A stretch of DNA of 47,591 nucleotides from IMG/VR virus record IMGVR_UViG_3300045988_142058. One strand, 5' to 3'. Below are positions 16,955-36,956 of this stretch, piece after piece (the stretch's first letter is position 1; each line of letters begins with the position of its first letter). Below the pieces are notes generated by a model, which saw nothing but the letters and a program-made list of their open reading frames with translations, was not told the DNA's origin and did not search any database. Position numbers and translations under genes: made by a program. This DNA comes from a virus (lineage: Duplodnaviria > Heunggongvirae > Uroviricota > Caudoviricetes).

Positions 16955-18811
16955 CTATATGGTTACGCCTTTACTTATAACTCTACGGCGTCTTCTACGT
17001 ATACCTGACGAGTTCTGCACATACACATTACCTCGCATTTCCTGTTCGGCAAGCCAGTTAAAATTAGGGTTCAGAATTTCCATCGCGGCAGTTGCATAGT
17101 TACGGCAATCAAGAGGCTCGTTACGCTCGTAGACTTTCACCCACTTTTCTTTTGTCTGCCCATTTTTATATTCAAATATTTTTTTCTCTGATAATAATCC
17201 TTTAAAGTATTCGGTATCATATCCTCTGTCAGAATCTAATGGGAAATGCATATAACCAGGACCAGGATCATGTAGTTTAATTCTTGCCATGATGGTCCCT
17301 TTACCATCATCAACCCCTAAATTAAACAACATAGCACCCACACGGTTATTATTACTTGGCTTTCCTATAAATGGTAAACCTACCCCACCACGCCCCCTGA
17401 TAGAGTATATTCGCCTTGATTCTCTCGGCTTAGTAAAGCGATATACCTCTGTCGTAAAATGCCCACCAGAGTCAATACAAACAGAAGAAATCTGTAATTT
17501 TCGACCGTCACGGAATGACCAGCTACGGAGTAAGTATTCATCAAGTTGTTTCCAGACAACATCTTGTGCGGGATCACCTAGGAATATTTTATATTCTATC
17601 CCCCATGACTCCTTACCTTTTCCCCAACCGACCAATTCACAAACTAAATACGTGTCCTGTACGTCAACACCAGCACTTAACAATAAAACATCATCTGGTA
17701 AAAACTCTTCAAACCTTATTCTGCGTTGCAACAAGTATTCAGGATCTATATCGTCTTTAGCATCCTCTTTCCATGGCTCACCCAGCTTAAGGTTAATAAA
17801 CTCCATTAATCCATTTTTATCGCGGTTTCTGGTTGCTTCCGTAAATTCTTCAACCAGCTCTGACAATGCAACCCACGGGGAGTAAAGACTGTTAATATGA
17901 AAACCAACAATACCTTTAACTCCAGTATGTTCAGCTATCCAAACCCCCTTCGCCAACCAATCAACGTCTGGTTTACCAGATCCGCGCATAATCCCGCCGC
18001 ACTCACAGCACTCATATCTGGCCGTTTCCGGTAACGCCTCACCTGAATCGCTCTTATCCCATCTGACTTGCGACCATTTCATCACCTGCATGGTGCCACA
18101 ACATGGGCAAGGAACATGGTAGTAACGCTGATCGGAGAGCTTAAACCACTTGTGGATTTTGCTCGTTTCCTCCAAAACAGGAGTAGAAACAAAAACTTTC
18201 TTACGATTATGAAAGTTGGTAGTACGCTGAATACCTAGTTTTAGTGGGTCGCCCTCCTGCGTCACACCGTAACGATCAATCTCATCAGCTAACAGTATTC
18301 GAATTGGCCTGGATGCAAGACCTGCTGGGGAATTAGCACCAACAAGTGCTATATATCCACCAGCGTAATGCTTCATACGTATAGTCGTGCTGGACTTTTT
18401 GGCTGCACCGCGCCCCTCTTTCCCTTCATGCAGCTTGTGTTTCAAACCAGGGGAATATTTGAACGTCGGATCAATACGCTCTTTTGAAAAAGCCTCAGCC
18501 GCCTCTACCGTTGGATAAATCATCAACTGAGGAGATGGCTCCTGATCTGCAAAGTAACCCATAACATTTAGCTGTAATTCGGATTTACCAATTTGCGAGC
18601 TACATTGCATCACTACTGTTTCTGTATCAGCGTCACCAATAACATCCATTGGTTCACGCAAATATGGCACTCGGCTTGTACGCCACGGCCCTGGCTCTGG
18701 AGACGTTCCCGGCGCTACATGACGATACTTATCAGCCCATTCGGAAACAGTTAGCCGTGATTTAGGGCGAAGCGCACGGAAAAAAGCGGTGCTCCATACT
18801 GTTTCGCCCAT
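16955..18811 (-). CDS. Terminase large subunit, lambda gpA-like
   Basis: 618 aa; Walker A-like QCSSQIGKSE; C-terminal nuclease-type region. Confidence 0.85.
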   Translation of the reverse strand: MGETVWSTAFFRALRPKSRLTVSEWADKYRHVAPGTSPEPGPWRTSRVPYLREPMDVIGDADTETVVMQCSSQIGKSELQLNVMGYFADQEPSPQLMIYPTVEAAEAFSKERIDPTFKYSPGLKHKLHEGKEGRGAAKKSSTTIRMKHYAGGYIALVGANSPAGLASRPIRILLADEIDRYGVTQEGDPLKLGIQRTTNFHNRKKVFVSTPVLEETSKIHKWFKLSDQRYYHVPCPCCGTMQVMKWSQVRWDKSDSGEALPETARYECCECGGIMRGSGKPDVDWLAKGVWIAEHTGVKGIVGFHINSLYSPWVALSELVEEFTEATRNRDKNGLMEFINLKLGEPWKEDAKDDIDPEYLLQRRIRFEEFLPDDVLLLSAGVDVQDTYLVCELVGWGKGKESWGIEYKIFLGDPAQDVVWKQLDEYLLRSWSFRDGRKLQISSVCIDSGGHFTTEVYRFTKPRESRRIYSIRGRGGVGLPFIGKPSNNNRVGAMLFNLGVDDGKGTIMARIKLHDPGPGYMHFPLDSDRGYDTEYFKGLLSEKKIFEYKNGQTKEKWVKVYERNEPLDCRNYATAAMEILNPNFNWLAEQEMRGNVYVQNSSGIRRRRRRVISKGVTI

Positions 18812-18816
18812 GAGGT

Positions 18817-19368
18817 TTATTCTTCCTGCTTAATAAATCGGGATTCCTGGAGCGCCTGAAGCGCAAAATTAATCTCGTCTTCAATAATGCGTTCGATCTC
18901 CCTGGCTGTTTTGCCTTCACAACGGGGAGCTGCTCTTGGAGCAATACTAAATAAGCGGCTACGCAATTCATTAGCTGCCAGAAATGCATCATCCCTGACC
19001 GCATCTTTAGCGATGAGAGAGCCTTCCTTTTCTTCAAATTCAAGGCGTTTCAGCTTTGCCTGATAAATTTTTTCTGCGGTCTTAGCCTTGTTGAATTGCA
19101 CCGCAACACCGGAAGTACCACCAGCTAATCCGGCATCATCAGCGGGTAACTCTGGTTGTTCCGAAGATATCCCATGCCCTCTTTTTCCATTTTCAGCAGA
19201 TACCTCACGGCCAACCTGTCGGCTCGCTTCATAAGCCGCACTGGCTTTATCAAAATCCAGCTTGCCGCTTTTCAGCACTGGAATGCGACCGGAACGACAG
19301 AGCTTCGTAACCATTGCCGGAGAAATACCTTTCCGGCGGGCAAACTCTGACTTACTGACGATGACCAT
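18817..19368 (-). CDS. Terminase small subunit
   Basis: First ATG at 19368 (track TTG at 19377); N-terminal HTH SKSEFARRKGISPAMVTKL. Confidence 0.6.
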   Translation of the reverse strand: MVIVSKSEFARRKGISPAMVTKLCRSGRIPVLKSGKLDFDKASAAYEASRQVGREVSAENGKRGHGISSEQPELPADDAGLAGGTSGVAVQFNKAKTAEKIYQAKLKRLEFEEKEGSLIAKDAVRDDAFLAANELRSRLFSIAPRAAPRCEGKTAREIERIIEDEINFALQALQESRFIKQEE

Positions 19369-19958
19369 TACTTGCAACCATTAGCAAGATACTGAACAAA
19401 TCCCTCATGCGTTTCATGCGCGTCGTGGTACTGACGATAAACATCCAGCAACAATGCAATTTCCATATCCGTCGCGGGAATACGTTCTTTATCAATAGCC
19501 AGGTACTTAATTTGAACAACAGGGGAAGAATTATCGTCTTCTTCCTGCGGCTGTTCATCGCTTAACATTTCGTCAAGCTCTGCATCATTAAACCCAAGCA
19601 GATCAATATCAAAATCATCATCCATTAACTCTTTGACTTCTTCGGCCAGAAGCTGCATATCCCAGCCAGCATTTAAGGCCAGCTTGTTATCTGCAATCCT
19701 GTACGCCTTCTTCTGTTTTTCAGAAAGGTTACTCAACCGAATCGCCGGAACTTTATCCATTTCCAGAATTTCGGCTGCTGCAAGCCGACCATGCCCCGCA
19801 ATCAGTTCATTCTTTTCATCGATCAGCACAGGATTAGTGAAACCGAACTCACGGATACTGTTCACCAACTGTTCAACCTGCTCATCTGAATGAGTCCGTG
19901 AATTTTTGGCGTATCTGAGCAGCTTACCGACTGGTAAATATTCGATTTTTAGAGCCAT
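19368..19958 (-). CDS. ParB-like nuclease domain protein
   Basis: 196 aa; ParB N-terminal motifs (NPVLIDEKNELIAGHGR, QKKAYRIADN); paralog of 22625..23248. Confidence 0.75.
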   Translation of the reverse strand: MALKIEYLPVGKLLRYAKNSRTHSDEQVEQLVNSIREFGFTNPVLIDEKNELIAGHGRLAAAEILEMDKVPAIRLSNLSEKQKKAYRIADNKLALNAGWDMQLLAEEVKELMDDDFDIDLLGFNDAELDEMLSDEQPQEEDDNSSPVVQIKYLAIDKERIPATDMEIALLLDVYRQYHDAHETHEGFVQYLANGCK

Positions 19959-20515
19959 TTTTTAACCGCCATAACACAACAGGTTAAAGAAAACTGTTTA
20001 ACTTATTGATACTAAAAGAGAAAAATGACGATCTTTTTACTCATAAAAAATCACACAAACCAGCATAATCATCTGATTTTATTAAGTTTTTATAAGTAAA
20101 AAGGATCTTGAGATGGTGTTTTGGTTAAAAGATTGGATGTATTTGCATGATTTATAACGATTTTTATCAGAACAACATCACATTGGTTAAAGATCTGCGC
20201 GTATCTTGATGATCTAAAAGAAAATTTTCTACTTTCTTTTTACCAGCACAAATACAGCAAAAAATCACGTTTTCCCGATATTTTTCAATGAGATGAGTAA
20301 ATTTCTTTTACCGCAACTTTTAACCTAACTTTTTTCACGTTTAGCTAGCCGAACATCGGGGTTCGAATGACCCGCATCCAACGCTTTTGGCCAGAAGGAC
20401 CCAATTCTGCCGGACGATGAAACGATGCTCGTGCTCACCCACAGACAGCCAGCGAGCGACGCTACAGAACACAGTGAATACACCCTGCATAACAACACCA
20501 TCAACCACACGATGA

Positions 20516-21235
20516 TTAACGAGAGAACGTCTTAGAAAGAATGTCATCAATAGCCTTTGTGACTTCATCAGCAAACGCATCGTCACCAGCACGTAGCGCC
20601 ACGCCATGCCAATCAAGACGCTGCGAATAGTTAGGTTGCTGGATAAACGTAAGGATCAACGTAGGACGCCGCCCAACGCGCTGCCAGACGCCTGGTTGAA
20701 GCGGGTTACTTGTACCAGGTCGAACAACAAAAAACTCCGTAGGCTTGCCCTGACGGCGATTTTGATGCGCATCTCGCTGAACTCTTAGGCCAGATAAGAC
20801 CTGCTGTAATTGCCCCCGCGAAATATTCCCGTATTTGTCCAGCTTTGCGCCGGGACCAGGAGCAAGCTGCCAGCCGTTAGGCAAATATCCACCAGCCCTT
20901 AGCGCCCCTTCTGAGCGTTTGTACTGTCGTTGGCCACCTTCGATTTGCGGAGTCAACGTTACAGGGGCTGGCGTTCCTCCCCATTCACGAGCATACACAA
21001 TGGCTGTAGGATCACTCTTCTTTGCGGCCAAAACGTAAGTAGAGTTCTGAATCCACGGCGTGGGCCTGTCAAATACCCGATTAATTTCATTCTTAATCGC
21101 AGCCTGAGAAGCCTTTGCCGTTCTGGTTGCCGCAAGCGCCATTGCGAATGGCAATTCGCGTTCTTCAAGGCGCTGGAGTTGTCGTTGAATATCCTGAGAA
21201 GAAAAATCAATCTTTATCTCAATTCTGTCAGCCAC
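20516..21235 (-). CDS. Hypothetical protein
   Basis: 239 aa ORF between methyltransferase and AT-rich intergenic region. Confidence 0.4.
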   Translation of the reverse strand: MADRIEIKIDFSSQDIQRQLQRLEERELPFAMALAATRTAKASQAAIKNEINRVFDRPTPWIQNSTYVLAAKKSDPTAIVYAREWGGTPAPVTLTPQIEGGQRQYKRSEGALRAGGYLPNGWQLAPGPGAKLDKYGNISRGQLQQVLSGLRVQRDAHQNRRQGKPTEFFVVRPGTSNPLQPGVWQRVGRRPTLILTFIQQPNYSQRLDWHGVALRAGDDAFADEVTKAIDDILSKTFSR

Positions 21236-21251
21236 CAGCGCCTCCTACACA

Positions 21252-22631
21252 CTACTTAATCAACGGCCGGAAAGCCGCCAACACATCATCAGATCGTCCG
21301 ATTGTTGAACCACCAGGCAACGGCAACTCAAACTCAAAACGAACAGCTTTCTCCAGACTCTCCCAGCGAAGAGAATCATCGTTAATAACGTGCAAATACC
21401 AGCTCTTACCGTTAAATACCGACCGCTTTATTCTGAAGCTATGCTCACGGCACAATTGCTTCACTTCCTCATCAGAATGAAACTTCTGATAAAACCAGTG
21501 TCCCTTCCGGTACAAAGCAGAAAAACCGTTATGGTCAATAAAATAAAGCCGGCTTATAGAGCTAGCAGCTTGCGTTCGTTTAAGCACACTCTCCAGCTCT
21601 CCACGACTACGGCCAGAAAAGAATATTGACCCACCAGCTTTACACAGGCCTTTCAGAACCGTCAGAACGGACCATTCAGCCTCGACACTATCGACCGAGT
21701 TCAAAACGCTATCGCAAATCACGTAGTCGTAACGCCCTCGCGTTTTTAAGTCGTCCACCAGCGTATCAATCATTCGGTTTGTTGCAGCCCTATCCAGAGT
21801 GTTTCCAGCGCCCTTACGGCGGAAAAGCTCGAGATCATGCAGGTTATATCCCTTTGCCCTGAGCATTCGCGCGTAGTCTCCCTGCCCCGAACCAAAATCA
21901 ATTCCTCTTGGCGTCTTGGCAATGATCGGGAGGATCAACGACTCATACAGGTTTGATTTCAGGCTGCCACCATTACGCAACCGCATAAGCTGCGCATACG
22001 TCTGGATGTATGTTGTTTTCTCCAGATGAGAATACTCAAATACACCATAAGTTTTATTCAGATAACTTTGGTATTTTTCCTTCTCAACATCAGGGATCAC
22101 AAACACCGTTAGCGGTGTGCGCGTCATCTTCGCTGCTAATGCATACTGAGCACAGTGAATAACCTCACCAGACTGAGTAGCAACACAACCACCCCACGGA
22201 CCATACTTGATAACCAGTTCCGCTATGTTCTTTCGAACATATGCCATTTTCGCGCGCATATTGCCTGAGATCTGGCTTGCCGATACCTGAACAAAACCAT
22301 GCTTATCTTCCAGACCGGACACCCTGCAACGCTCATCTCCGCTATCAAAATCCGTTCCGTTATGCAGTTGGTTAAACCGTACTTCGTCGTATACCGTCGT
22401 TTCACAGGGCAACACATACACCGCAGCACGCGTTATTCCCAACTTACGTAGCGCCTTCGTCCTTTGGTGTCCCGCCACCAGCAAATCGCCGCGCACTATC
22501 AATGGCTTCACAAGCCCCAGCTCCCTGACGCTTTCCGCCAGCCTCGCAAGATCATCCTCACCGATAAAACGCGGGTTATATTCCGCGCCGCGTAGGTGCG
22601 TTATGTCGTAATTCAGGTGAAGCATCAGCAC
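21252..22631 (-). CDS. ParB-domain / SAM-dependent DNA methyltransferase fusion
   Basis: 459 aa; N-terminal ParB-like (LVAGHQRTKA), C-terminal motif I-like IDFGSGQGDYA. Confidence 0.65.
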   Translation of the reverse strand: MLMLHLNYDITHLRGAEYNPRFIGEDDLARLAESVRELGLVKPLIVRGDLLVAGHQRTKALRKLGITRAAVYVLPCETTVYDEVRFNQLHNGTDFDSGDERCRVSGLEDKHGFVQVSASQISGNMRAKMAYVRKNIAELVIKYGPWGGCVATQSGEVIHCAQYALAAKMTRTPLTVFVIPDVEKEKYQSYLNKTYGVFEYSHLEKTTYIQTYAQLMRLRNGGSLKSNLYESLILPIIAKTPRGIDFGSGQGDYARMLRAKGYNLHDLELFRRKGAGNTLDRAATNRMIDTLVDDLKTRGRYDYVICDSVLNSVDSVEAEWSVLTVLKGLCKAGGSIFFSGRSRGELESVLKRTQAASSISRLYFIDHNGFSALYRKGHWFYQKFHSDEEVKQLCREHSFRIKRSVFNGKSWYLHVINDDSLRWESLEKAVRFEFELPLPGGSTIGRSDDVLAAFRPLIK

Positions 22632-23248
22632 ACCTCCCCAGCCAGCAATGCGGATACAAATCCGATATAGCTGCCATTATCATCAACATAACGAGACACC
22701 GCGCAGTCAAAACGATCCGCTTCCTCATCCGTTGCCGGGATTTTATGACCTCCAAATGACAGGTACTGAACTTTTACGCCTGATTTGGCCTCATCCTTCT
22801 CAAATGGGATATCCATACCCTCTGTGTCATCGTAGACCGCCGCACTCAATAAGTTATCCAGTTCGCGCTGAGTAAAACCAATTGAGTCCAGAGCAAAATC
22901 ATCGGCCGCAAGATCTGCAAGCTCCGCGCTTAACAACTCTTCATCCCAACCAGCATTCAGCGGAATACGGTTGTCGGCCAGACGATATGCCTTCTTCTGA
23001 TTCTCCGTTAGCCCAGCCAGAACAATGCAGGGAACATCATCCATCCCCAACTGAGTGGCCGCAGCAATTCGACCATGACCAGCAATTACAACGTTGTTCT
23101 CGTCTATCAGGATCGGATTAGTCCATCCGTACTCCTGTATGCTGGCAACAATCTGATCTACCTGCTCCACGGAGTGTGTGCGAGCGTTCTTTTCATAACC
23201 AATCAACACAGAAAGTGGTAAAGAAACCACATTAAGATGTTTTGTCAT
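22625..23248 (-). CDS. ParB-like nuclease domain protein
   Basis: 207 aa; same motif set as 19368..19958 (NPILIDENNVVIAGHGR, QKKAYRLADN). Confidence 0.75.
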   Translation of the reverse strand: MTKHLNVVSLPLSVLIGYEKNARTHSVEQVDQIVASIQEYGWTNPILIDENNVVIAGHGRIAAATQLGMDDVPCIVLAGLTENQKKAYRLADNRIPLNAGWDEELLSAELADLAADDFALDSIGFTQRELDNLLSAAVYDDTEGMDIPFEKDEAKSGVKVQYLSFGGHKIPATDEEADRFDCAVSRYVDDNGSYIGFVSALLAGEVC

Positions 23249-23482
23249 GCCGTTTATCCGCTAAAATCCCCTCGCTTGTGCAAGCAAGTGGGCCTCGGTT
23301 TGTATCCACGGCACCCTGTGGGTATGAATGACTGTCGTCAGGTCGCAACTGACGGCGGTCGCCCACCTTCCAGTAATAAAAAAGCCACCAGCATTAACTC
23401 CACAGCGAGCTGGAGTTAATGAGGCAGCTTTGGTTTGCGCATTATCGCAGCCCCTGATAGGCACAAGAGCTGCTGTAATGCG

Positions 23483-23893
23483 TTACGCAGGGATCAAACG
23501 GAGGCAGCCGTTATTTACCTCAATACGAGAGTATTCCGGCTTACCATCAACGATTCCGGTAATGACAAGTTCGCCATCAGACGAGCATTCTTCTTTGTCG
23601 TCTTCAAGTACCGCACCTTCTGGCAAATCAACACAGGCAAAAACAGGGCAGCCAGGATAACGATCATCTTCCATCGCAATCAGCATCGACTCACCGAACC
23701 ACTCTGTGGTAGCACGGCCATCAGCCGCCTGATAGTGAATCAGATACTGGTTTTCGCCATTTGCATACTGAGCACGGGCTTTAACTTCTCCCCATTCGTC
23801 ACTGATACGCATTGTTACCAGTTGGGATAATTCAAACTTAAACGGAACAGACTCTGCACCAATGGCTATCGGTTTATCTTCTTTCTTTTCCAT
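23483..23893 (-). CDS. Hypothetical protein
   Basis: 136 aa, AGGTGA RBS; preceded by intrinsic terminator. Confidence 0.4.
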   Translation of the reverse strand: MEKKEDKPIAIGAESVPFKFELSQLVTMRISDEWGEVKARAQYANGENQYLIHYQAADGRATTEWFGESMLIAMEDDRYPGCPVFACVDLPEGAVLEDDKEECSSDGELVITGIVDGKPEYSRIEVNNGCLRLIPA

Positions 23894-23903
23894 AACATCA
23901 CCT

Positions 23904-23933
23904 GAAAATAAAAGCCCCGCGACACCGCGAGGC
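23904..23933 (-). terminator. Intrinsic terminator inside cassette-1 operon (second)
   Basis: 8-bp GC stem then UUUUAUUUUC on minus RNA, just upstream of RBS of 23483..23893. Confidence 0.5.
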
Positions 23934-23941
23934 TGTAAGAG

Positions 23942-24094
23942 TTACTTTCGATAGAAATCAAGGCGCATTTGCTCCCGCTTAAGCCAAAAAGCTCTCTGCG
24001 CCACTAAGATGCGCCACAGGACACCAGCAATAACCACCAGCGAGATACAAAAACACACGGCCACAACCATCAGAAAAATGCCAAGACCATTCAT
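23942..24094 (-). CDS. Small hydrophobic membrane protein (50 aa)
   Basis: ATGA start/stop overlap with upstream gene; MNGLGIFLMVVAVCFCISLVVIAGVLW; below track size cut-off. Confidence 0.3.
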   Translation of the reverse strand: MNGLGIFLMVVAVCFCISLVVIAGVLWRILVAQRAFWLKREQMRLDFYRK

Positions 24095-24303
24095 GAAACT
24101 ATCCATTTTTCAATGAATACCTCCAGTAATATCAAGAGATACGCCGTACCCAGCGCGGTTCCTACCGATATAGCTAAGACAAACCTCAAAGATAACGAGG
24201 TATCTTTCGCTTTTCTCCAGACGTAAGCGCCAGCCAGAAATACCAACAAATCTCTTATTGGAAGCGGAAACCAGAACAAATCACTCGGCATAAGCACGAT
24301 CAT
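24091..24303 (-). CDS. Small membrane protein
   Basis: 70 aa, two hydrophobic segments. Confidence 0.4.
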   Translation of the reverse strand: MIVLMPSDLFWFPLPIRDLLVFLAGAYVWRKAKDTSLSLRFVLAISVGTALGTAYLLILLEVFIEKWIVS

Positions 24304-24580
24304 CTTCCGCTGCTGATTTACATGCCGCAGTTACTGATATATTGATAACCGGTGCGCTAATCGTGATGGACGACGCTGTCGGTTGACGCGATATAACTGA
24401 ACGATGGCTATCAATGAAGTCCACAATCTCATTCAGGCATTCTTTAGCTGCCTCATCGTGACTTTTTCCGTATGCTTCATGGAGGACTTTCATCCTCATC
24501 ATTGCTCCGTCACATATAGTCGAAAGCGCGTAAAGCACATCACTAACCGCCATTTCTTTTTTGGTGCTTGTCGAAGGCAT
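24281..24580 (-). CDS. Hypothetical protein
   Basis: 99 aa, first gene after terminator 24604..24631. Confidence 0.4.
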   Translation of the reverse strand: MPSTSTKKEMAVSDVLYALSTICDGAMMRMKVLHEAYGKSHDEAAKECLNEIVDFIDSHRSVISRQPTASSITISAPVINISVTAACKSAAEDDRAYAE

Positions 24581-24603
24581 CCCATGTTCTCCTTTGTCTG
24601 GAT

Positions 24604-24631
24604 GTAAAAAAGCCCCGGCAATTGCCGAGGC
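24604..24631 (-). terminator. Intrinsic terminator inside cassette-1 operon
   Basis: 10-bp stem (with G.U only in minus-strand RNA) followed by UUUUUUAC; in 74-nt gap after second gene. Confidence 0.55.
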
Positions 24632-24654
24632 TCGTTGTTCGTTATCGTTACGGT

Positions 24655-24855
24655 TTAATGCTCGCGTCGTCCGGCGACAACTTCGGATTTGTATTTCAGG
24701 TCGCCCAGCAAGAATTGCAGTTTAAGCATCTTTGCCGCCGTGTAGTTCCCTGATTCCACAACCTCTTTCATGAGGTCATAAACGGCCGCTACATCATCAG
24801 CCAGGAACTCTTTGCGTTGCTGCTCAGTCGCACGTTTGAAGGAAATACGCATCAC
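24655..24855 (-). CDS. Hypothetical protein
   Basis: 66 aa, coupled to upstream gene. Confidence 0.4.
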   Translation of the reverse strand: MMRISFKRATEQQRKEFLADDVAAVYDLMKEVVESGNYTAAKMLKLQFLLGDLKYKSEVVAGRREH

Positions 24856-25121
24856 TCATCATCTCCTGCCGCACATACAACCTCACAAAAAACATCAGCG
24901 GAATGTTTCTCCTTGAACGAATGACGCTCAAAACCGCACTCAATATCAGGCGCAAAAACATCCACCACATACGGTCTTTCAGAATGTTTGTTTTCCCAAC
25001 GATAAACCGTAGTGACGTTGAAATGTTTTAACGCTTCACGGAACTCAACGCTGCCCGTCAGGTTTTTTGAGGTCAGGTATTGCAGGAGGTTTTTTACTAC
25101 TTCACGGTCTTGTACTTTCAT
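24852..25121 (-). CDS. Hypothetical protein, first gene behind cassette copy 1
   Basis: 89 aa; ATG at 25121 preceded by cassette GGAG RBS. Confidence 0.45.
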   Translation of the reverse strand: MKVQDREVVKNLLQYLTSKNLTGSVEFREALKHFNVTTVYRWENKHSERPYVVDVFAPDIECGFERHSFKEKHSADVFCEVVCAAGDDE

Positions 25122-25230
25122 CGGGTTATCTCCGGTTTAACCAGGGCGGGTATCGCTCGGTTTCGGGTATAACCATAGGAAATTTTTTCCCACCTGTAAA
25201 GCACTTTTTATATAAATCTATAATTATATA
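25122..25230 (-). promoter_or_regulatory. Promoter-leader cassette copy 1
   Basis: ~109 bp near-identical to copies at 32043..32150 and 40979..41087; putative -35 TTTACA (25195..25200), -10 TATGGT (25172..25177), leader with GGAG RBS. Confidence 0.6.
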
Positions 25231-25233
25231 ATT

Positions 25234-25821
25234 CTATGACACTTGCCAGAGAGCATCATGCAACTGGATACCTCCATTGCACTGGTTGCCCCAGCCATGC
25301 CAGCCATCAGGTAAATCACCGCGAGCAAACAGCTCAATACGAGGAACATCGCCTAACAGCTTTACCAGCTTGTCACGGACCACATCAGGCTTCCGAGAAT
25401 GCTCCAGACGAGGCGATGTAAACGACTGAATGATTCCCGCATCAAGACGTGTCGGTAGTTTGCCTTTCACTGCAAACAAGCAATCTTCACTGTTTGCACG
25501 AGTCATATGCCCCATCCCCATCACCAGCTTATCTGGTTGTCGGCTACCACATTTGTTCCATGTGAAGCCCTTCATGGTCATCAGCCTGAATCCCCATGCT
25601 TTCACCACCAGCAACGCTTCTTCTGGCTGAGTCGGAACCCACCACATGGCCAACAAACACGATTCAGGATTAGCAAGCTGCCAGACAGGAATACGAGCAA
25701 TATCCTCAGCTTTCATCGTTGGATACTTAAAACCAGCGCCACGATTCCCATCCTTACACTTGTCTTTGTATTCCCAGGGGGGATCTGCATAAATCAGATT
25801 AAACAATGCAATTGCCTCCAT
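25234..25821 (-). CDS. MT-A70 family N6-adenine DNA methyltransferase
   Basis: 195 aa; DPPW motif (LIYADPPWEY). Confidence 0.8.
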   Translation of the reverse strand: MEAIALFNLIYADPPWEYKDKCKDGNRGAGFKYPTMKAEDIARIPVWQLANPESCLLAMWWVPTQPEEALLVVKAWGFRLMTMKGFTWNKCGSRQPDKLVMGMGHMTRANSEDCLFAVKGKLPTRLDAGIIQSFTSPRLEHSRKPDVVRDKLVKLLGDVPRIELFARGDLPDGWHGWGNQCNGGIQLHDALWQVS

Positions 25822-26129: not shown

Positions 26130-26205
26130 TGGTGGCCCCTACCGGATTTGAACCGATGACCGTGCGATTATGAGTCGCCTGCTCTAACCACTGAGCTAAG
26201 GGGCC
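26130..26205 (-). tRNA. tRNA with CAU anticodon, tRNA-Ile2 (lysidine)-like, CCA encoded
   Basis: 76 nt cloverleaf GGCCCCUUAGCUCAGUGGUUAGAGCAGGCGACUCAUAAUCGC...GGUUCAAAUCCGGUAGGGGCCACCA; 7-bp acceptor stem; resembles E. coli ileX from memory; elongator Met not excluded. Confidence 0.8.
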
Positions 26206-26374: not shown

Positions 26375-26584
26375 TTACTTTGGACAGTTGATTTCCCATG
26401 CCCTGTTATGAGCCAGAATATCTTTCTTTGTCTGGCGGTCCATAACATCGATATCGTGATCAGTCAGGTAGATGGGCTTTACCCAATCACAGGCGGTATC
26501 AACCACCACCGGGACGCTTCCACGACTCCCGCAGCTCGCGATCAACATCGTCATCAGCCATATGGTTAACACTCTGCTGTACAT
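26375..26584 (-). CDS. Outer-membrane spanin Rz1-like lipoprotein
   Basis: 69 aa; lipobox-like LIASC; overlaps 3' end of Rz-like gene in another frame. Confidence 0.55.
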   Translation of the reverse strand: MYSRVLTIWLMTMLIASCGSRGSVPVVVDTACDWVKPIYLTDHDIDVMDRQTKKDILAHNRAWEINCPK

Positions 26585-26777
26585 TGCCCACCTCTTTTGT
26601 CACTTCTATACGCCGCTCCGCAGTGGCTTTTACGGCGGCTGCATTCTCATTAATGCGCTGCTTTTCAGCTTCATCTTCGGCCTTTTCTCGCCCCTTCATA
26701 CGACCAAAACCAAACGCGCCGAATGCAACCAATATAATTGTGCCAATAAATGACAAAACGGCCTTCAAACCAGTCAT
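26499..26777 (-). CDS. Inner-membrane spanin Rz-like
   Basis: 92 aa; N-terminal TM, charged coiled-coil; follows endolysin. Confidence 0.6.
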   Translation of the reverse strand: MTGLKAVLSFIGTIILVAFGAFGFGRMKGREKAEDEAEKQRINENAAAVKATAERRIEVTKEVGNVQQSVNHMADDDVDRELRESWKRPGGG

Positions 26778-27316
26778 ACCACCACTCGCTCTTTCATCCA
26801 GCCGTAGACAAACGACTCATTCGCCTCGCGCTTCTCCGCCAACTCCAGATAGCGTTCGCCCTGCGTACAGTTCAGCGACGTCAGCATCACCCGTTCGCCG
26901 TCTTTTCCCCGATTCCCAAGATAAGCACGCAGCGCATTAATGGTACGTGGACCGATTCGTCCGTCTGCATCCAAATCGGGATACAGCTTCCCGCGCAGGT
27001 TGAACACATTCAGCCAGCGTTGAAGCATTTTTGACGCCACTGTTGGCCCCATGTTCACCCCCGTGTCACACAGCTCTGCAGCAATATCAGAGGATAATGC
27101 GGCCACCTGATCAAAGCGTGGTCCGTACCAGTAATCAGCCTCAAGGATTTCCAGTGCCTGTTCGCGAGTTAAATCGCGCATATCGCCACGGTATCCATGA
27201 GCACGGGCAGTGTTCTGAGTAATGCCCCACTTTGTTGGGCCTCCCTTGTCGTCAGGGTGATCAACATAACCGCCCTCTTTCCCAAGAATGCTGTTAAAAA
27301 TCTCATCTTTGGTCAT
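26774..27316 (-). CDS. Endolysin, GH108-like with peptidoglycan-binding domain
   Basis: 180 aa; ILGKEGGYVDHPDDKGGPTKWGIT motif; C-terminal DGRIGPRTINAL. Confidence 0.8.
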   Translation of the reverse strand: MTKDEIFNSILGKEGGYVDHPDDKGGPTKWGITQNTARAHGYRGDMRDLTREQALEILEADYWYGPRFDQVAALSSDIAAELCDTGVNMGPTVASKMLQRWLNVFNLRGKLYPDLDADGRIGPRTINALRAYLGNRGKDGERVMLTSLNCTQGERYLELAEKREANESFVYGWMKERVVV

Positions 27317-27635
27317 GATTAAACCCTAATGCGTCAACTATCCGCGCCAGATTGCCCCTGAAATACAGAACAACGATGCAGATAATCAGATTTCCAATAA
27401 CCACCAGCCAGTGGGATTCTTGATAAAGACCGAACACATAACGGAAGGGAACATTGGCGTATACAATGACGTAGATATAAGCCAGAAAGGAAACAAATGG
27501 ACGATGCCTGGAGTCTTTCCGTCGATAAAGCATCAGCGCCATTACTATTACTGTGCAAAGCACCGCATTAATCAGTGCTGACGGGTCACTGCTTACCATT
27601 TGAACCCCCTCCACGTAAGCGGGAAAGCATTCCAA
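27303..27635 (-). CDS. Membrane protein, holin/antiholin-like
   Basis: 110 aa, multiple hydrophobic segments; start uncertain. Confidence 0.4.
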   Translation of the reverse strand: MECFPAYVEGVQMVSSDPSALINAVLCTVIVMALMLYRRKDSRHRPFVSFLAYIYVIVYANVPFRYVFGLYQESHWLVVIGNLIICIVVLYFRGNLARIVDALGFNHDQR

Positions 27636-27981
27636 AGATGCTACCGAGATCCTGGCTGTTTACGAACGTGAGGATTTTAATGGTCAATGCAGCCACAATA
27701 ACCGCACCAAGCGCATCCAGAGGACGATCGTTGTAGCTGGTCCATTTGGCAAGAAATGAGCCAACTAACGGCGCTCCAATCACTCCAACAATGAACGATG
27801 TAAAGAAATAGCCAATCAGCTTGAGACGGCTAATATTCACCGCTGTAGCAACATAGAAAACAGCGCCAGCAAATGCCCCGAATACAACGCCGTAATCAAT
27901 ACCAGTTGCAATACCAAAAACGCTGGCACCCATCAGGCCACCAGCAGCAACGGCCGTACCGGAAATTGGTTCTGCTGACAT
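27586..27981 (-). CDS. Putative holin
   Basis: 131 aa, 3-4 predicted TM segments, upstream of endolysin. Confidence 0.55.
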   Translation of the reverse strand: MSAEPISGTAVAAGGLMGASVFGIATGIDYGVVFGAFAGAVFYVATAVNISRLKLIGYFFTSFIVGVIGAPLVGSFLAKWTSYNDRPLDALGAVIVAALTIKILTFVNSQDLGSIFGMLSRLRGGGSNGKQ

Positions 27982-35884: not shown

Positions 35885-36010
35885 ATATGATTATAGTTTT
35901 ATATAATTATATAAAACGCTTTTCATCCGCCAAAAAGTTGGTTATGCTTACCTCGTTCTATAAATATAGATTTATAGAATTATATAACCAAACACATGGA
36001 GTCTCGACAA

Positions 36011-36664
36011 ATGACTATCTCTGTAGGTATTTTCAACGGAAAAGGCGGCGTAACCAAATCAACAATTGCCCGTGCTTTAGCAGTTGCTTATGCAAAGGCT
36101 GGCTGGAATGTATGCCTGATCGATATGGATGTGCTTAACGGAACGGTAACGCGTTGGGTACAACGCAGAATGGCCAACAATATCGAACCAGCAATCGCGG
36201 CGCAGCCGTGCGGCACACCATCACAAGTCCAGAAAATCATCGAATCAGAAGTATACGACCTGGTTATCGTCGATGGCGGTGCCTACGCATCTGAATCAGT
36301 ACCGAAGCTCTCTGAATTTCTGGATATGGTTATTTTGCCAACCAGATTCTCTACCGATGACCTGGAAACCACCGTTAACACAGCTCATGGCATCGTTAAA
36401 AAGGGTGTGCCAATCAAGAAAATTTGCATGGTGTTCTCAGGCGCGGCTGAAAACGAAGCCGACTACATTGAAGCCCAAGAGTACCTGGCTAATACGCCAT
36501 ACTTTGTTGTCGATAAGTACATTCCCCACAAGCCAGCTCTGAGCAAAGCTCAGGATAAGGGCTTAAGCCTCATTGAGTGCTCATACGTTGCGCCACGCAA
36601 AAAGGCAGACGACGTTATTCAGGGGATTATCAACCAGCTTGAGGCTCTGACTACTGCCGCGTAA
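36011..36664 (+). CDS. parA: ParA-like partition ATPase (small, type Ib-like)
   Basis: Deviant Walker A FNGKGGVTKST; start at second ATG with GGAG RBS. Confidence 0.8.
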   Translation: MTISVGIFNGKGGVTKSTIARALAVAYAKAGWNVCLIDMDVLNGTVTRWVQRRMANNIEPAIAAQPCGTPSQVQKIIESEVYDLVIVDGGAYASESVPKLSEFLDMVILPTRFSTDDLETTVNTAHGIVKKGVPIKKICMVFSGAAENEADYIEAQEYLANTPYFVVDKYIPHKPALSKAQDKGLSLIECSYVAPRKKADDVIQGIINQLEALTTAA

Positions 36665-36707: not shown

Positions 36708-36956
36708 ATGGCCGCACCATCAAAACCACCAAAGAAGAACAGCAAAGGCGTACCGCCATCGATCGAACAACCGCAGGTTTTCGACCCGACTGAAACGCCA
36801 ACCAGAACCAAATCAGGTGGGGCACAAATGGCGTTTAACGTCGACCCTGAATTTAAACGTGAGTACAAAACATTCGCCAGCTCAATGGATATGTCATTGA
36901 AAGAAGTGCTGACAAAATCTTTTGAGTTACTCAAGGCTCAATACAACCAGAAGTAA
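36708..36956 (+). CDS. ParG/ParB-like small partition DNA-binding protein
   Basis: 82 aa after parA; basic N-tail, RHH-like C-terminus. Confidence 0.5.
   Translation: MAAPSKPPKKNSKGVPPSIEQPQVFDPTETPTRTKSGGAQMAFNVDPEFKREYKTFASSMDMSLKEVLTKSFELLKAQYNQK

Follow-up and report, generated by a model that had tools for sequence, protein, structure and literature searches.

ParB-domain and methyltransferase genes ahead of the terminase genes of an Escherichia coli phage-plasmid: a conserved small-ParB/ParB-methyltransferase pair beside a core ParB gene of the packaging operon

Introduction

Why should a tailed phage carry three genes with ParB domains and two methyltransferases directly ahead of its terminase genes? 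This question is raised by the IMG/VR virus record IMGVR_UViG_3300045988_142058 (Caudoviricetes), a stretch of 47,591 nt that is hereafter called the window. A preliminary description of this DNA had pointed out two ParB-like genes (here ParB1 and ParB2), a fusion of a ParB domain with a methyltransferase (ParB-MT) and a methylase of the MT-A70 family, and had named packaging and anti-restriction as the obvious candidate roles. The five open reading frames (ORFs) concerned are all located on the minus strand, with the positions and domains that had been given for them (Table 1), and their clustering ahead of the terminase goes beyond chance, as it recurs at 98% identity in 64 complete Escherichia coli genomes. 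There it resides on circular plasmids of about 48 kb, one of which is the 48,488 bp plasmid of E. coli ATCC 25922, and the window is in addition about 97–98% identical to the Yersinia myoviruses vB_YpM_39, vB_YpM_41 and vB_YpM_44. Being near-identical to circular E. coli plasmids as well as to these myoviruses, the 47.6-kb window is an E. coli phage-plasmid. Except for the repressor, partition and replication genes near 34.7–39.5 kb its genes lie on the minus strand, on which the lysis cassette (26375–27981) is followed by a tRNA, the ParB/methyltransferase region and the terminase, head and tail genes.

The answer that we favour, with a probability of roughly 40%, is a composite one, according to which ParB2 and ParB-MT constitute an adaptor-enzyme module, ParB1 is a core packaging gene and MT-A70 is an ordinary methylase.

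Results and discussion

ParB2 and ParB-MT are obligate partners

The preliminary description had overlooked that ParB2 and ParB-MT form an obligate pair, as is evident from their conserved adjacency and from natural fusions. Of the 51 IMG/VR viral loci that extend upstream of ParB-MT, 50 encode a small ParB of 186–250 amino acids (aa) immediately before it in the same orientation, and in 42 of these 50 the two genes overlap or abut, as they do in the window, where the ParB2 stop codon and the ParB-MT start codon overlap (TGATG). The same holds for 62 of 73 species-level bacterial genomes, ranging from Enterobacterales to Streptomyces, Chloroflexota, Planctomycetota and Bacteroidota, and altogether the module is spread over about nine bacterial phyla. 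With respect to ParB-MT itself, a word-indexed search yielded 704 matches that are 45–97% identical over the full length and have the same architecture, and among 1.84 billion representative sequences the family comprises 312 clusters at 50% identity (E ≤ 1e-30), nearly all of them 450–490 aa long. Members of the family occur in Enterobacterales, Alphaproteobacteria, Bacillota, Planctomycetota, Myxococcota, Chloroflexota, Actinomycetota (with many Streptomyces and Kitasatospora), Bacteroidota and Kiritimatiellae; just seven records of cultured phages contain a homologue.

In two proteins from metagenomes, P0256 (658 aa) and P0261 (659 aa), an entire small ParB is naturally joined in frame to ParB-MT; the 200 aa at their N-terminus fit the profile of the small ParBs with a probability of 99% (E = 4e-18). 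Fusions of this 'Rosetta stone' kind argue that the small ParB and ParB-MT work together physically, and the contrast in charge between the basic ParB-MT (isoelectric point (pI) 9.1) and the acidic ParB2 (pI 4.3) likewise speaks for the pairing. In another protein, P0174, the C-terminal motif of the small ParBs alone precedes ParB-MT, which hints that the small-ParB C-terminal domain may be the point of contact with ParB-MT.

Directly after ParB-MT a third gene is found in 32 of the 62 viral module loci and in 61 of the 73 genomes. It codes for a Cys-rich protein of about 145–170 aa with the motifs FRYxWxK..GFD..HCAxCL, YxCGV and TCRNxQF, for which no Pfam or PHROG family was matched. As this Cys-rich gene is present neither in the window nor in its enterobacterial relatives, the three-gene operon is represented in the window by a two-gene form. 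In the Streptomyces neighbourhoods naive ORF calls are unreliable owing to the high-GC DNA, and a Pfam scan was uninformative there.

The module is commonly located 0.7–3.6 kb upstream of the large terminase gene, often at contig ends, and the terminases next to it are of the gpA, Terminase_2, Terminase_3 or Terminase_6 type. It also occurs in the late region of integrated prophages, and one module locus adjoins an Acb2/Tad1-like anti-defence gene. The module loci and the relatives of the window thus bear out the earlier statement that ParB-domain genes and orphan methylases recur beside terminase genes. ParB genes in addition to the module pair are rare, being confined to this lineage and three others among the 62 viral module loci.

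Core and cargo

About 45 related IMG/VR loci were collected with two genes as anchors, ParB1 and p239, the latter belonging to a 'minor tail protein' PHROG family. The arrangement of the window recurs in four of these loci (L125, L126, L128 and L130). In about 15 others, each reaching at least 3.9 kb upstream, the lysis cassette leads nearly straight onto p239, ParB1, TerS and TerL, and none of MT-A70, ParB2 and ParB-MT is present. When the window is compared with these cargo-free (type-B) relatives, nucleotide homology starts at position 21246, between the stop codon of ParB-MT and the start of p239, a core gene that is present in all relatives, lies at the right end of the genome and delimits the cargo region. 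Since ParB2, ParB-MT and MT-A70 are missing from about 15 relatives and have in part been deleted in another (L127, see below), they are optional cargo, which occupies the classic slot between the lysis and the packaging genes. Within E. coli, the cargo is found as a rule: 71 genomes contain ParB1-TerS at an identity of at least 99%, and 66 a complete ParB2/ParB-MT. Chromosomal segments that are 60–80% identical to portions of ParB1-TerS or ParB2-ParB-MT were found in more than 1,000 complete E. coli genomes, and related ParB-domain genes must therefore be very common in E. coli prophages.

The presence of three ParB genes is a lineage-specific accident, namely a core ParB plus a cargo module. 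That such a triplet is unusual, as had been claimed, is borne out by its rarity among the viral module loci, and yet the single operon to which it had been assigned could not be confirmed, because a gap of 557 nt containing no gene but a putative cohesive-end site (cos) separates p239 from ParB1 (19959–20515), and because two strong terminator-like hairpins (Table 1) both fall between MT-A70 and ParB2.

Other constituents of the cargo block are p136 (23483–23893, minus strand), an acidic protein of phrog_1935 whose length differs among relatives, and, ahead of it, two short ORFs (23942–24303) for highly hydrophobic products of 54 and 70 aa. At the start of the block lies a tRNA gene (26130–26205, minus strand) with a CAT anticodon, which ARAGORN designates tRNA-Met and the RefSeq orthologue tRNA-Ile; if the RefSeq label is right, this would be a lysidine-type tRNA-Ile2.

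ParB1 at the head of the packaging operon

In every relative, with or without cargo (type-A and type-B), ParB1 lies directly ahead of TerS. Its retention there in relatives devoid of the cargo makes it part of the core of the packaging operon, and as ParB1 persists without MT-A70 and ParB-MT it cannot depend on either of them. The ParB1 stop codon overlaps the ATG of TerS (TAATG), which resembles the ParB2/ParB-MT junction and suggests that ParB1 is translationally coupled to TerS. A shortened ParB1 was also observed in two relatives, L099 and L130.

The closest non-orthologous relatives of ParB1 are the N-termini of ParB-N6_N4 DNA-methylase fusions, which are 43–53% identical to it across the nucleotide-binding domain and the linker. 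Such a fusion is encoded immediately ahead of a gpA-type TerS in L100, where it overlaps the start of that gene, and in L103; L104 has one at a distance of about 1 kb from TerS on the upstream side, and in other phages a solitary small ParB is found about 1.2 kb upstream of TerL. It is thus a widespread arrangement that a ParB-domain gene heads a gpA-type packaging operon, with a C-terminal part that varies between a small domain and a DNA methylase.

The deposited records of vB_YpM_39 and vB_YpM_41 begin and end between positions 20372 and 20373 of the window, and that of vB_YpM_44 between 20360 and 20361. Because an offset of 12 nt between record ends would result from a cohesive end assigned to either terminus, and because this fits a gpA-type terminase, positions 20361–20372 are regarded as a putative cos. 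It is flanked by the partly symmetric CGGGT/ACCCCG (context 20355–20380) and lies about 1 kb upstream of TerS, with ParB1 as the first gene past it. Given this putative cos, ParB1-TerS-TerL would form the left end of the virion DNA and ParB2-ParB-MT-p239 the right end. The AT-rich region between cos and ParB1 may contain binding sites for terminase or ParB, or a late leader; within it, a 31-nt imperfect inverted repeat (20033–20103, 77% complementary, 9-nt spacer) is a possible protein-binding site or RNA structure.

The gene p239 stands alone beside cos, distant from the tail genes. Distant homologues (L100:3001-3837 and L148:200-925) are likewise positioned just ahead of ParB and terminase genes in other phages.

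Domain structure of the ParB proteins

ParB1 and ParB2 are 48% identical from end to end (E = 5e-62) and are hence paralogues, as had been proposed. Their match to PF02195, for which the cut-off is 26.3 bits, amounts to 33.7 bits for ParB1 and to 23.9 bits, slightly below the cut-off, for ParB2; the profile of the small-ParB family matches the N-domains of Noc, Spo0J and ParB (E about 1e-13). In these proteins the nucleotide-binding domain is followed by a helical segment and a spacer, both acidic, and by a C-terminal domain of about 45 aa with the motif kIPxTxxExxxLxxxxxxYxxxxGxxxGFVxxLL; their pI is 4.3–4.5. In the family alignment, N21 of Box I and G57 and R60 of Box II are invariant and N93 of Box III is nearly so (at least 90%), and ParB1 has conserved the corresponding motifs N-x-R, GHGR and DN. 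The catalytic Glu of the canonical Box II motif GERR is replaced by His in ParB1, ParB2 and ParB-MT (GHGR or GHQR), which makes hydrolysis of nucleoside triphosphates (NTPs) uncertain. PADLOC assigned ParB1 and ParB2 to 'MTase_II'; this assignment was rejected as a sign of methylase activity, because the matches span only the ParB portion of fusion models.

When compared to the canonical CTP clamps ParB, Noc and KorB, the proteins share the N-terminal fold and the phosphate-binding Arg and Asn of Boxes I, II and III, whereas the helix-turn-helix (HTH), the C-terminal dimerisation domain, the ParA partner or motif and the Glu of GERR that characterise these clamps are found neither in the small ParBs nor in ParB-MT. 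The N-termini of the ParB-N6_N4 fusions (phrog_498; M.EcoGIX, M.BceJIII and Bce_0392) are those resembling ParB1 and ParB2 as described above, but these fusions end in a methylase where ParB1 and ParB2 end in the 45-aa domain, and the methyltransferase of ParB-MT belongs to another class.

ParB-MT corresponds to phrog_5475 over its full length (E = 5e-261); RefSeq and the cluster representative place its start two codons further on, at the ATG at 22625, so that the protein has 457 aa. Its three domains are listed in Table 1, the residues N19, R21, G54, H55, R57, N87 and N91 of the first one being invariant. AlphaFold reached a mean confidence (pLDDT) of 34 from the single sequence and of 95 with an alignment of 108 sequences, and the N-terminus of the resulting model superposes on phage ParB/Srx proteins at 1.2–2.8 Å. 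A structure search of BFVD with the ParB-MT model returned only ParB-only or methyltransferase-only matches, separately. A profile of the middle domain found no sequence relative in the PDB. As a second, degenerate ParB fold this domain was not accepted, since hhalign gave a probability of just 5%; its order of strands and helices is the same and the register of the alignment is right, and such a fold is a possibility.

While the fusion of a ParB domain to a methyltransferase had thus been recognised correctly, it is not the familiar ParB-N6_N4 DNA methylase: the methyltransferase domain is of the class-I Methyltransf_23 type, and ParB-MT has no match to PF01555 and none of the motifs (D/N/S)PP(Y/F/W), DPPY and PC. 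As no DNA methylase can be recognised in this domain, anti-restriction DNA methylation by ParB-MT is not to be simply assumed. A fusion of ParB with Methyltransf_23 (PF13489) has been reported as phage-enriched, one member from a gut phage and one from an alphaproteobacterium having been purified and screened for NTP binding, and SAM-methyltransferase fusions bound ATP (PNAS, December 2025; PMC12704722). By domain content these fusions are like ParB-MT, with the same two Pfam domains and the same enrichment in phages and prophages; that survey deals with them as one protein having 'predicted DNA methyltransferase activity', and in the text consulted there is no mention of an obligate small ParB as partner, of a third gene, of natural three-domain fusions, of the terminase-side position or of the non-DNA-methylase fold.

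MT-A70

Unlike ParB-MT, the MT-A70 protein has an intact DPPW motif ('YADPPWEY'). It also matches the catalytic domains of ciliate MTA1 and of METTL3; homologues are encoded in 502 phage records, and over residues 7–181 its identity to an 'adenine methylase' of the Stx2a-phage TL-2011c amounts to 73.7%. It is an ordinary adenine methylase without a cognate nuclease gene (an orphan), of the M.EcoGV type common in Stx phages. With M.EcoGV and M.EcoPA8orf6770P it shares the DPPW motif and the said identity, but the C-terminus of the window protein differs, and while the Stx-phage gene sits early-left, that of the window is located in the late cargo region. Within the lineage MT-A70 co-varies with the module (in 4/4 loci with and 0/~15 loci without it), because both sit in one cargo block.

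The substrate of the Stx-phage enzymes is disputed. The M.EcoGV/M.EcoPA8orf6770P family is annotated as DNA methylases forming N6-methyladenine (m6A) in GATC, and overproduction of M.EcoGV led to methylation of GATC in vivo. However, in a study from 2023 the enzyme together with its partner PNB-2 preferred 16S rRNA (PMC10810198). A PNB-like partner was not found among the small ORFs of the window, nor was there any match to the genes flanking the Stx-phage methylase.

ParB1 and the MT-A70 protein of the window match different portions of phrog_21315 (415 positions), at 24–94 and 238–407, respectively, and it follows that some phages fuse a ParB domain to MT-A70. The functional link between ParB1 and MT-A70 that this might indicate is weakened by the persistence of ParB1 without MT-A70.

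Table 1. Position of the features discussed, in window coordinates unless a locus is named (S-adenosylmethionine, SAM; ribbon-helix-helix, RHH).
Feature	Position	Strand	Remarks
TerL, lambda gpA type, ATPase plus own endonuclease domain	16955..18811	-	PF05876 E 7e-76; PF20454 E 2.5e-84
TerS	18817..19377	-	phrog_57 E 4.5e-42; likely true start ATG at 19368 (RefSeq start)
ParB1, 196 aa, small ParB/Srx protein	19368..19958	-	PF02195 E 3.8e-8
AT-rich non-coding region, cos to ParB1	19959..20360		no ORF or annotated gene
Putative cos, 12 nt, GGTCATTCGAAC on minus strand	20361..20372		end offset of deposited phage records
p239, 'minor tail protein' PHROG family	20516..21235	-	phrog_1924 E 3e-97; no Pfam match
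Optional cargo block, lysis cassette to p239	21247..~26300	-	tRNA, MT-A70, six small ORFs, p136, ParB2, ParB-MT
ParB-MT, 459 aa	21252..22631	-	Methyltransf_23 31.3 bits (cut-off 27); ParB_N 24.4 bits, slightly below cut-off
ParB-MT residues 226-459, class-I SAM methyltransferase domain	21255..21956	-	motif I IDFGSGQGD; acidic E268 at end of beta-2; beta-4 CDSVLNSVD
ParB-MT residues 99-225, basic family-specific middle domain (pI 9.3)	21957..22337	-	GPWGG, IHxAQYA, YGxFxY, QTxAQ invariant
ParB-MT residues 1-98, ParB/Srx nucleotide-binding domain	22338..22631	-	YNPR, AGHQR, FNQLHN invariant
ParB2, 207 aa, small ParB partner of ParB-MT	22625..23248	-	phrog_620 E 4e-74
Terminator-like hairpin, upstream of p136/ParB2	23913..23934	-	9-bp stem, 7 GC pairs, then T-run
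Terminator-like hairpin, MT-A70 group vs downstream genes	24610..24633	-	10-bp stem, 7 GC pairs, then T-run
MT-A70 N6-adenine methyltransferase, 195 aa	25234..25821	-	PF05063 E 4e-23 over full profile; phrog_359
ParA	35996-36664	+	probable plasmid partition gene
82-aa RHH-like protein	36708-36956	+	after ParA; C-terminal half resembles RHH (FNVDPEFKREYKTFASSMDMSLKEVLTKSFELL)
Third-gene examples	L020:1610-2041, L155:6382-6819, L161:6845-7336, L199:6441-6953		directly after ParB-MT

Proposed roles and what speaks against them

Under the composite explanation, ParB2 would bind ParB-MT and, at a late stage of infection, serve as its adaptor or activator on nucleic acid, the most likely target of the two proteins being replicated phage DNA soon before packaging. 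The small ParB would act as an NTP-binding adaptor or activator of its enzyme partner, the product would be a methyl mark set by a fold other than that of the conventional DNA methylases, and the likely benefit would be evasion of host defences. ParB1, in turn, would be a ParB-type adaptor at or with the packaging machinery, in an operon of the order cos, ParB1, TerS, TerL. Packaging and anti-restriction, as named in the preliminary description, are still candidate roles.

The adaptor role of ParB2 is suggested by the many ParB-methylase fusions and by the precedent of ParB176 and 5mYOX176, in which a ParB without DNA-binding domain is required for a thymine dioxygenase to act on double-stranded DNA (PNAS 2026; PMC13229309). 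According to the published description, ParB176 resembles the small ParBs in having the same nucleotide-binding domain, a short helical segment, a long linker and a C-terminal domain; it is also encoded beside a nucleic-acid-modifying enzyme, often near the terminase, and its pairing is cognate. The two systems differ in that the partner there is an Fe/2OG dioxygenase and here a class-I SAM methyltransferase with a ParB domain of its own.

Several observations weigh against this explanation. With respect to the enzyme, the methyltransferase domain of ParB-MT shows no DNA-methylase signature and its closest folds are small-molecule and tRNA methyltransferases, and for these two reasons DNA may not be its substrate. 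With respect to the adaptor, ParB1 and ParB2 are strongly acidic, lack a recognisable DNA-binding domain and have no match to a Pfam HTH family; the C-terminal domain fits the pattern of an RHH, yet was rejected as such since 0 of 25 members match a Pfam RHH family. Gating by NTP is not assured either, because in the 5mYOX system mutation of the NTP-pocket residues of the ParB did not abolish activation (PMC13229309). In addition, ParB1 is retained in relatives without any nearby phage methylase. Finally, neither ParB2/ParB-MT nor ParB1 seems strictly essential. L127, the core of which is 97.6% identical to that of the window, lacks the stretch corresponding to 23829..21347 and has thus lost ParB2 and ParB-MT; this 2.5-kb deletion fuses the start of p136 to the last ~96 nt (about 30 codons) of ParB-MT (L127:7796-7984), so that the locus is a natural knockout of both genes. 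ParB1, for its part, is split into two ORFs in L098 (4001–4592) and L145 (5252–5843), two loci of one and the same contig; this may reflect a frameshift, a sequencing error or dispensability.

Alternative explanations

The main rival, somewhat unlikely in our estimation, assumes that ParB-MT methylates something other than DNA, be it a small molecule, a signalling nucleotide, tRNA, rRNA or a protein, and that the ParB/Srx domains are not DNA clamps but nucleotide-binding or regulatory parts of an enzyme for anti-defence or host takeover, which would occupy the cargo slot beside the terminase by chance. The missing DPPY and PC motifs are in line with it, as is the inclusion of the ATP-using sulfiredoxin and of a serine kinase in the ParB/Srx fold. 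The Acb2/Tad1-like gene beside one module locus and the reported preference for 16S rRNA of a phage MT-A70 that is annotated as a DNA methylase point in the same direction. However, both ParB domains are closest to those of the DNA-clamping ParB and Noc proteins (E about 1e-13), genuine DNA methylases are present in sister fusions of this ParB clade, and the middle and methyltransferase domains of ParB-MT are basic. The constant terminase-side position of the module across unrelated phages likewise suggests a link to DNA. The readings as nuclease, regulator or partition protein are less likely than this one.

As nucleases or nickases, the ParB domains would aid the cleavage of cos or packaging, comparable to HNH proteins, or would degrade the DNA of host or competitor. 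Some ParB/Srx proteins do nick DNA, namely the ParB-methylase Bce_0392, Osa and the Sulfolobus 'ParB domain protein nuclease' (PMC5512222), the small-ParB profile matches PDB entry 5k5d (E = 1e-3), and ParB1 appears to be coupled to TerS right after the putative cos. In contrast, TerL already contains a complete gpA endonuclease domain (E = 2.5e-84), the conserved partner of ParB2 is a methyltransferase and not the terminase, the Glu of Box II has been replaced by His, no nuclease-specific motif was identified in ParB1 or ParB2, and ParB1 is interrupted in two relatives. We therefore consider such a function doubtful, and the 'nuclease' of the preliminary description, for which no nuclease feature was seen, is a matter of name alone.

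No more probable is an elaborate version of the module, as a novel type of phage system for modifying nucleic acids. In it, the two different ParB domains would assemble into a heteromeric clamp, gated by NTP and loaded in the vicinity of cos, which would carry the non-canonical class-I methyltransferase in cis along the phage genome. Just before packaging this clamp would set a methyl mark unlike m6A, N4-methylcytosine (m4C) or 5-methylcytosine (m5C), for example at an unusual base position or on the backbone, with the Cys-rich protein as a third component elsewhere and ParB1 as a sister adaptor coupling the clamp to TerS.

Still less likely are ParB proteins that regulate or silence late genes near cos and the late operon, in the manner of KorB, DndB and IbrB, with the methyltransferase as an accessory. 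The location at the head of the late packaging operon and the 400-nt AT-rich leader with inverted repeats would suit such a regulator, and regulators with a ParB fold are known in DndB and KorB (PMC12704722, PMC13229309). But an HTH or other DNA-binding domain was not detected, and the natural fusions as well as the invariant, catalytically complete methyltransferase domain would be left unexplained.

That the ParB genes code for centromere-binding partition proteins of a plasmid prophage, as the circular plasmid form in E. coli and the label 'chromosome (plasmid) partitioning protein' in public records might suggest, is highly improbable and was rejected, since the sequences reach only 16–40 bits for TIGR00180 (cut-off 58), contain neither an HTH nor the ParA-binding motif LG[KR]G, occur as a module also in the late region of integrated prophages, and lie 13 kb away from ParA and an RHH-like protein of 82 aa that are probably the plasmid's own type-Ib partition pair.

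Significance

It has been recognised only recently that the ParB fold is more than that of chromosome-segregation clamps. ParB2 and ParB-MT define a second unit of a ParB plus an enzyme, which is far more widespread than the ParB/dioxygenase pair and almost always located beside packaging genes, and for which the labels 'DNA methyltransferase', 'nuclease' and 'partition protein' in public records are unsupported. The E. coli phage-plasmid, with natural variants that carry the module, lack it or have deleted it, offers a tractable model, in which identifying the substrate of ParB2/ParB-MT might bring to light a new chemistry by which phages modify nucleic acids or counter defences, as well as the delivery of an enzyme by a ParB adaptor.

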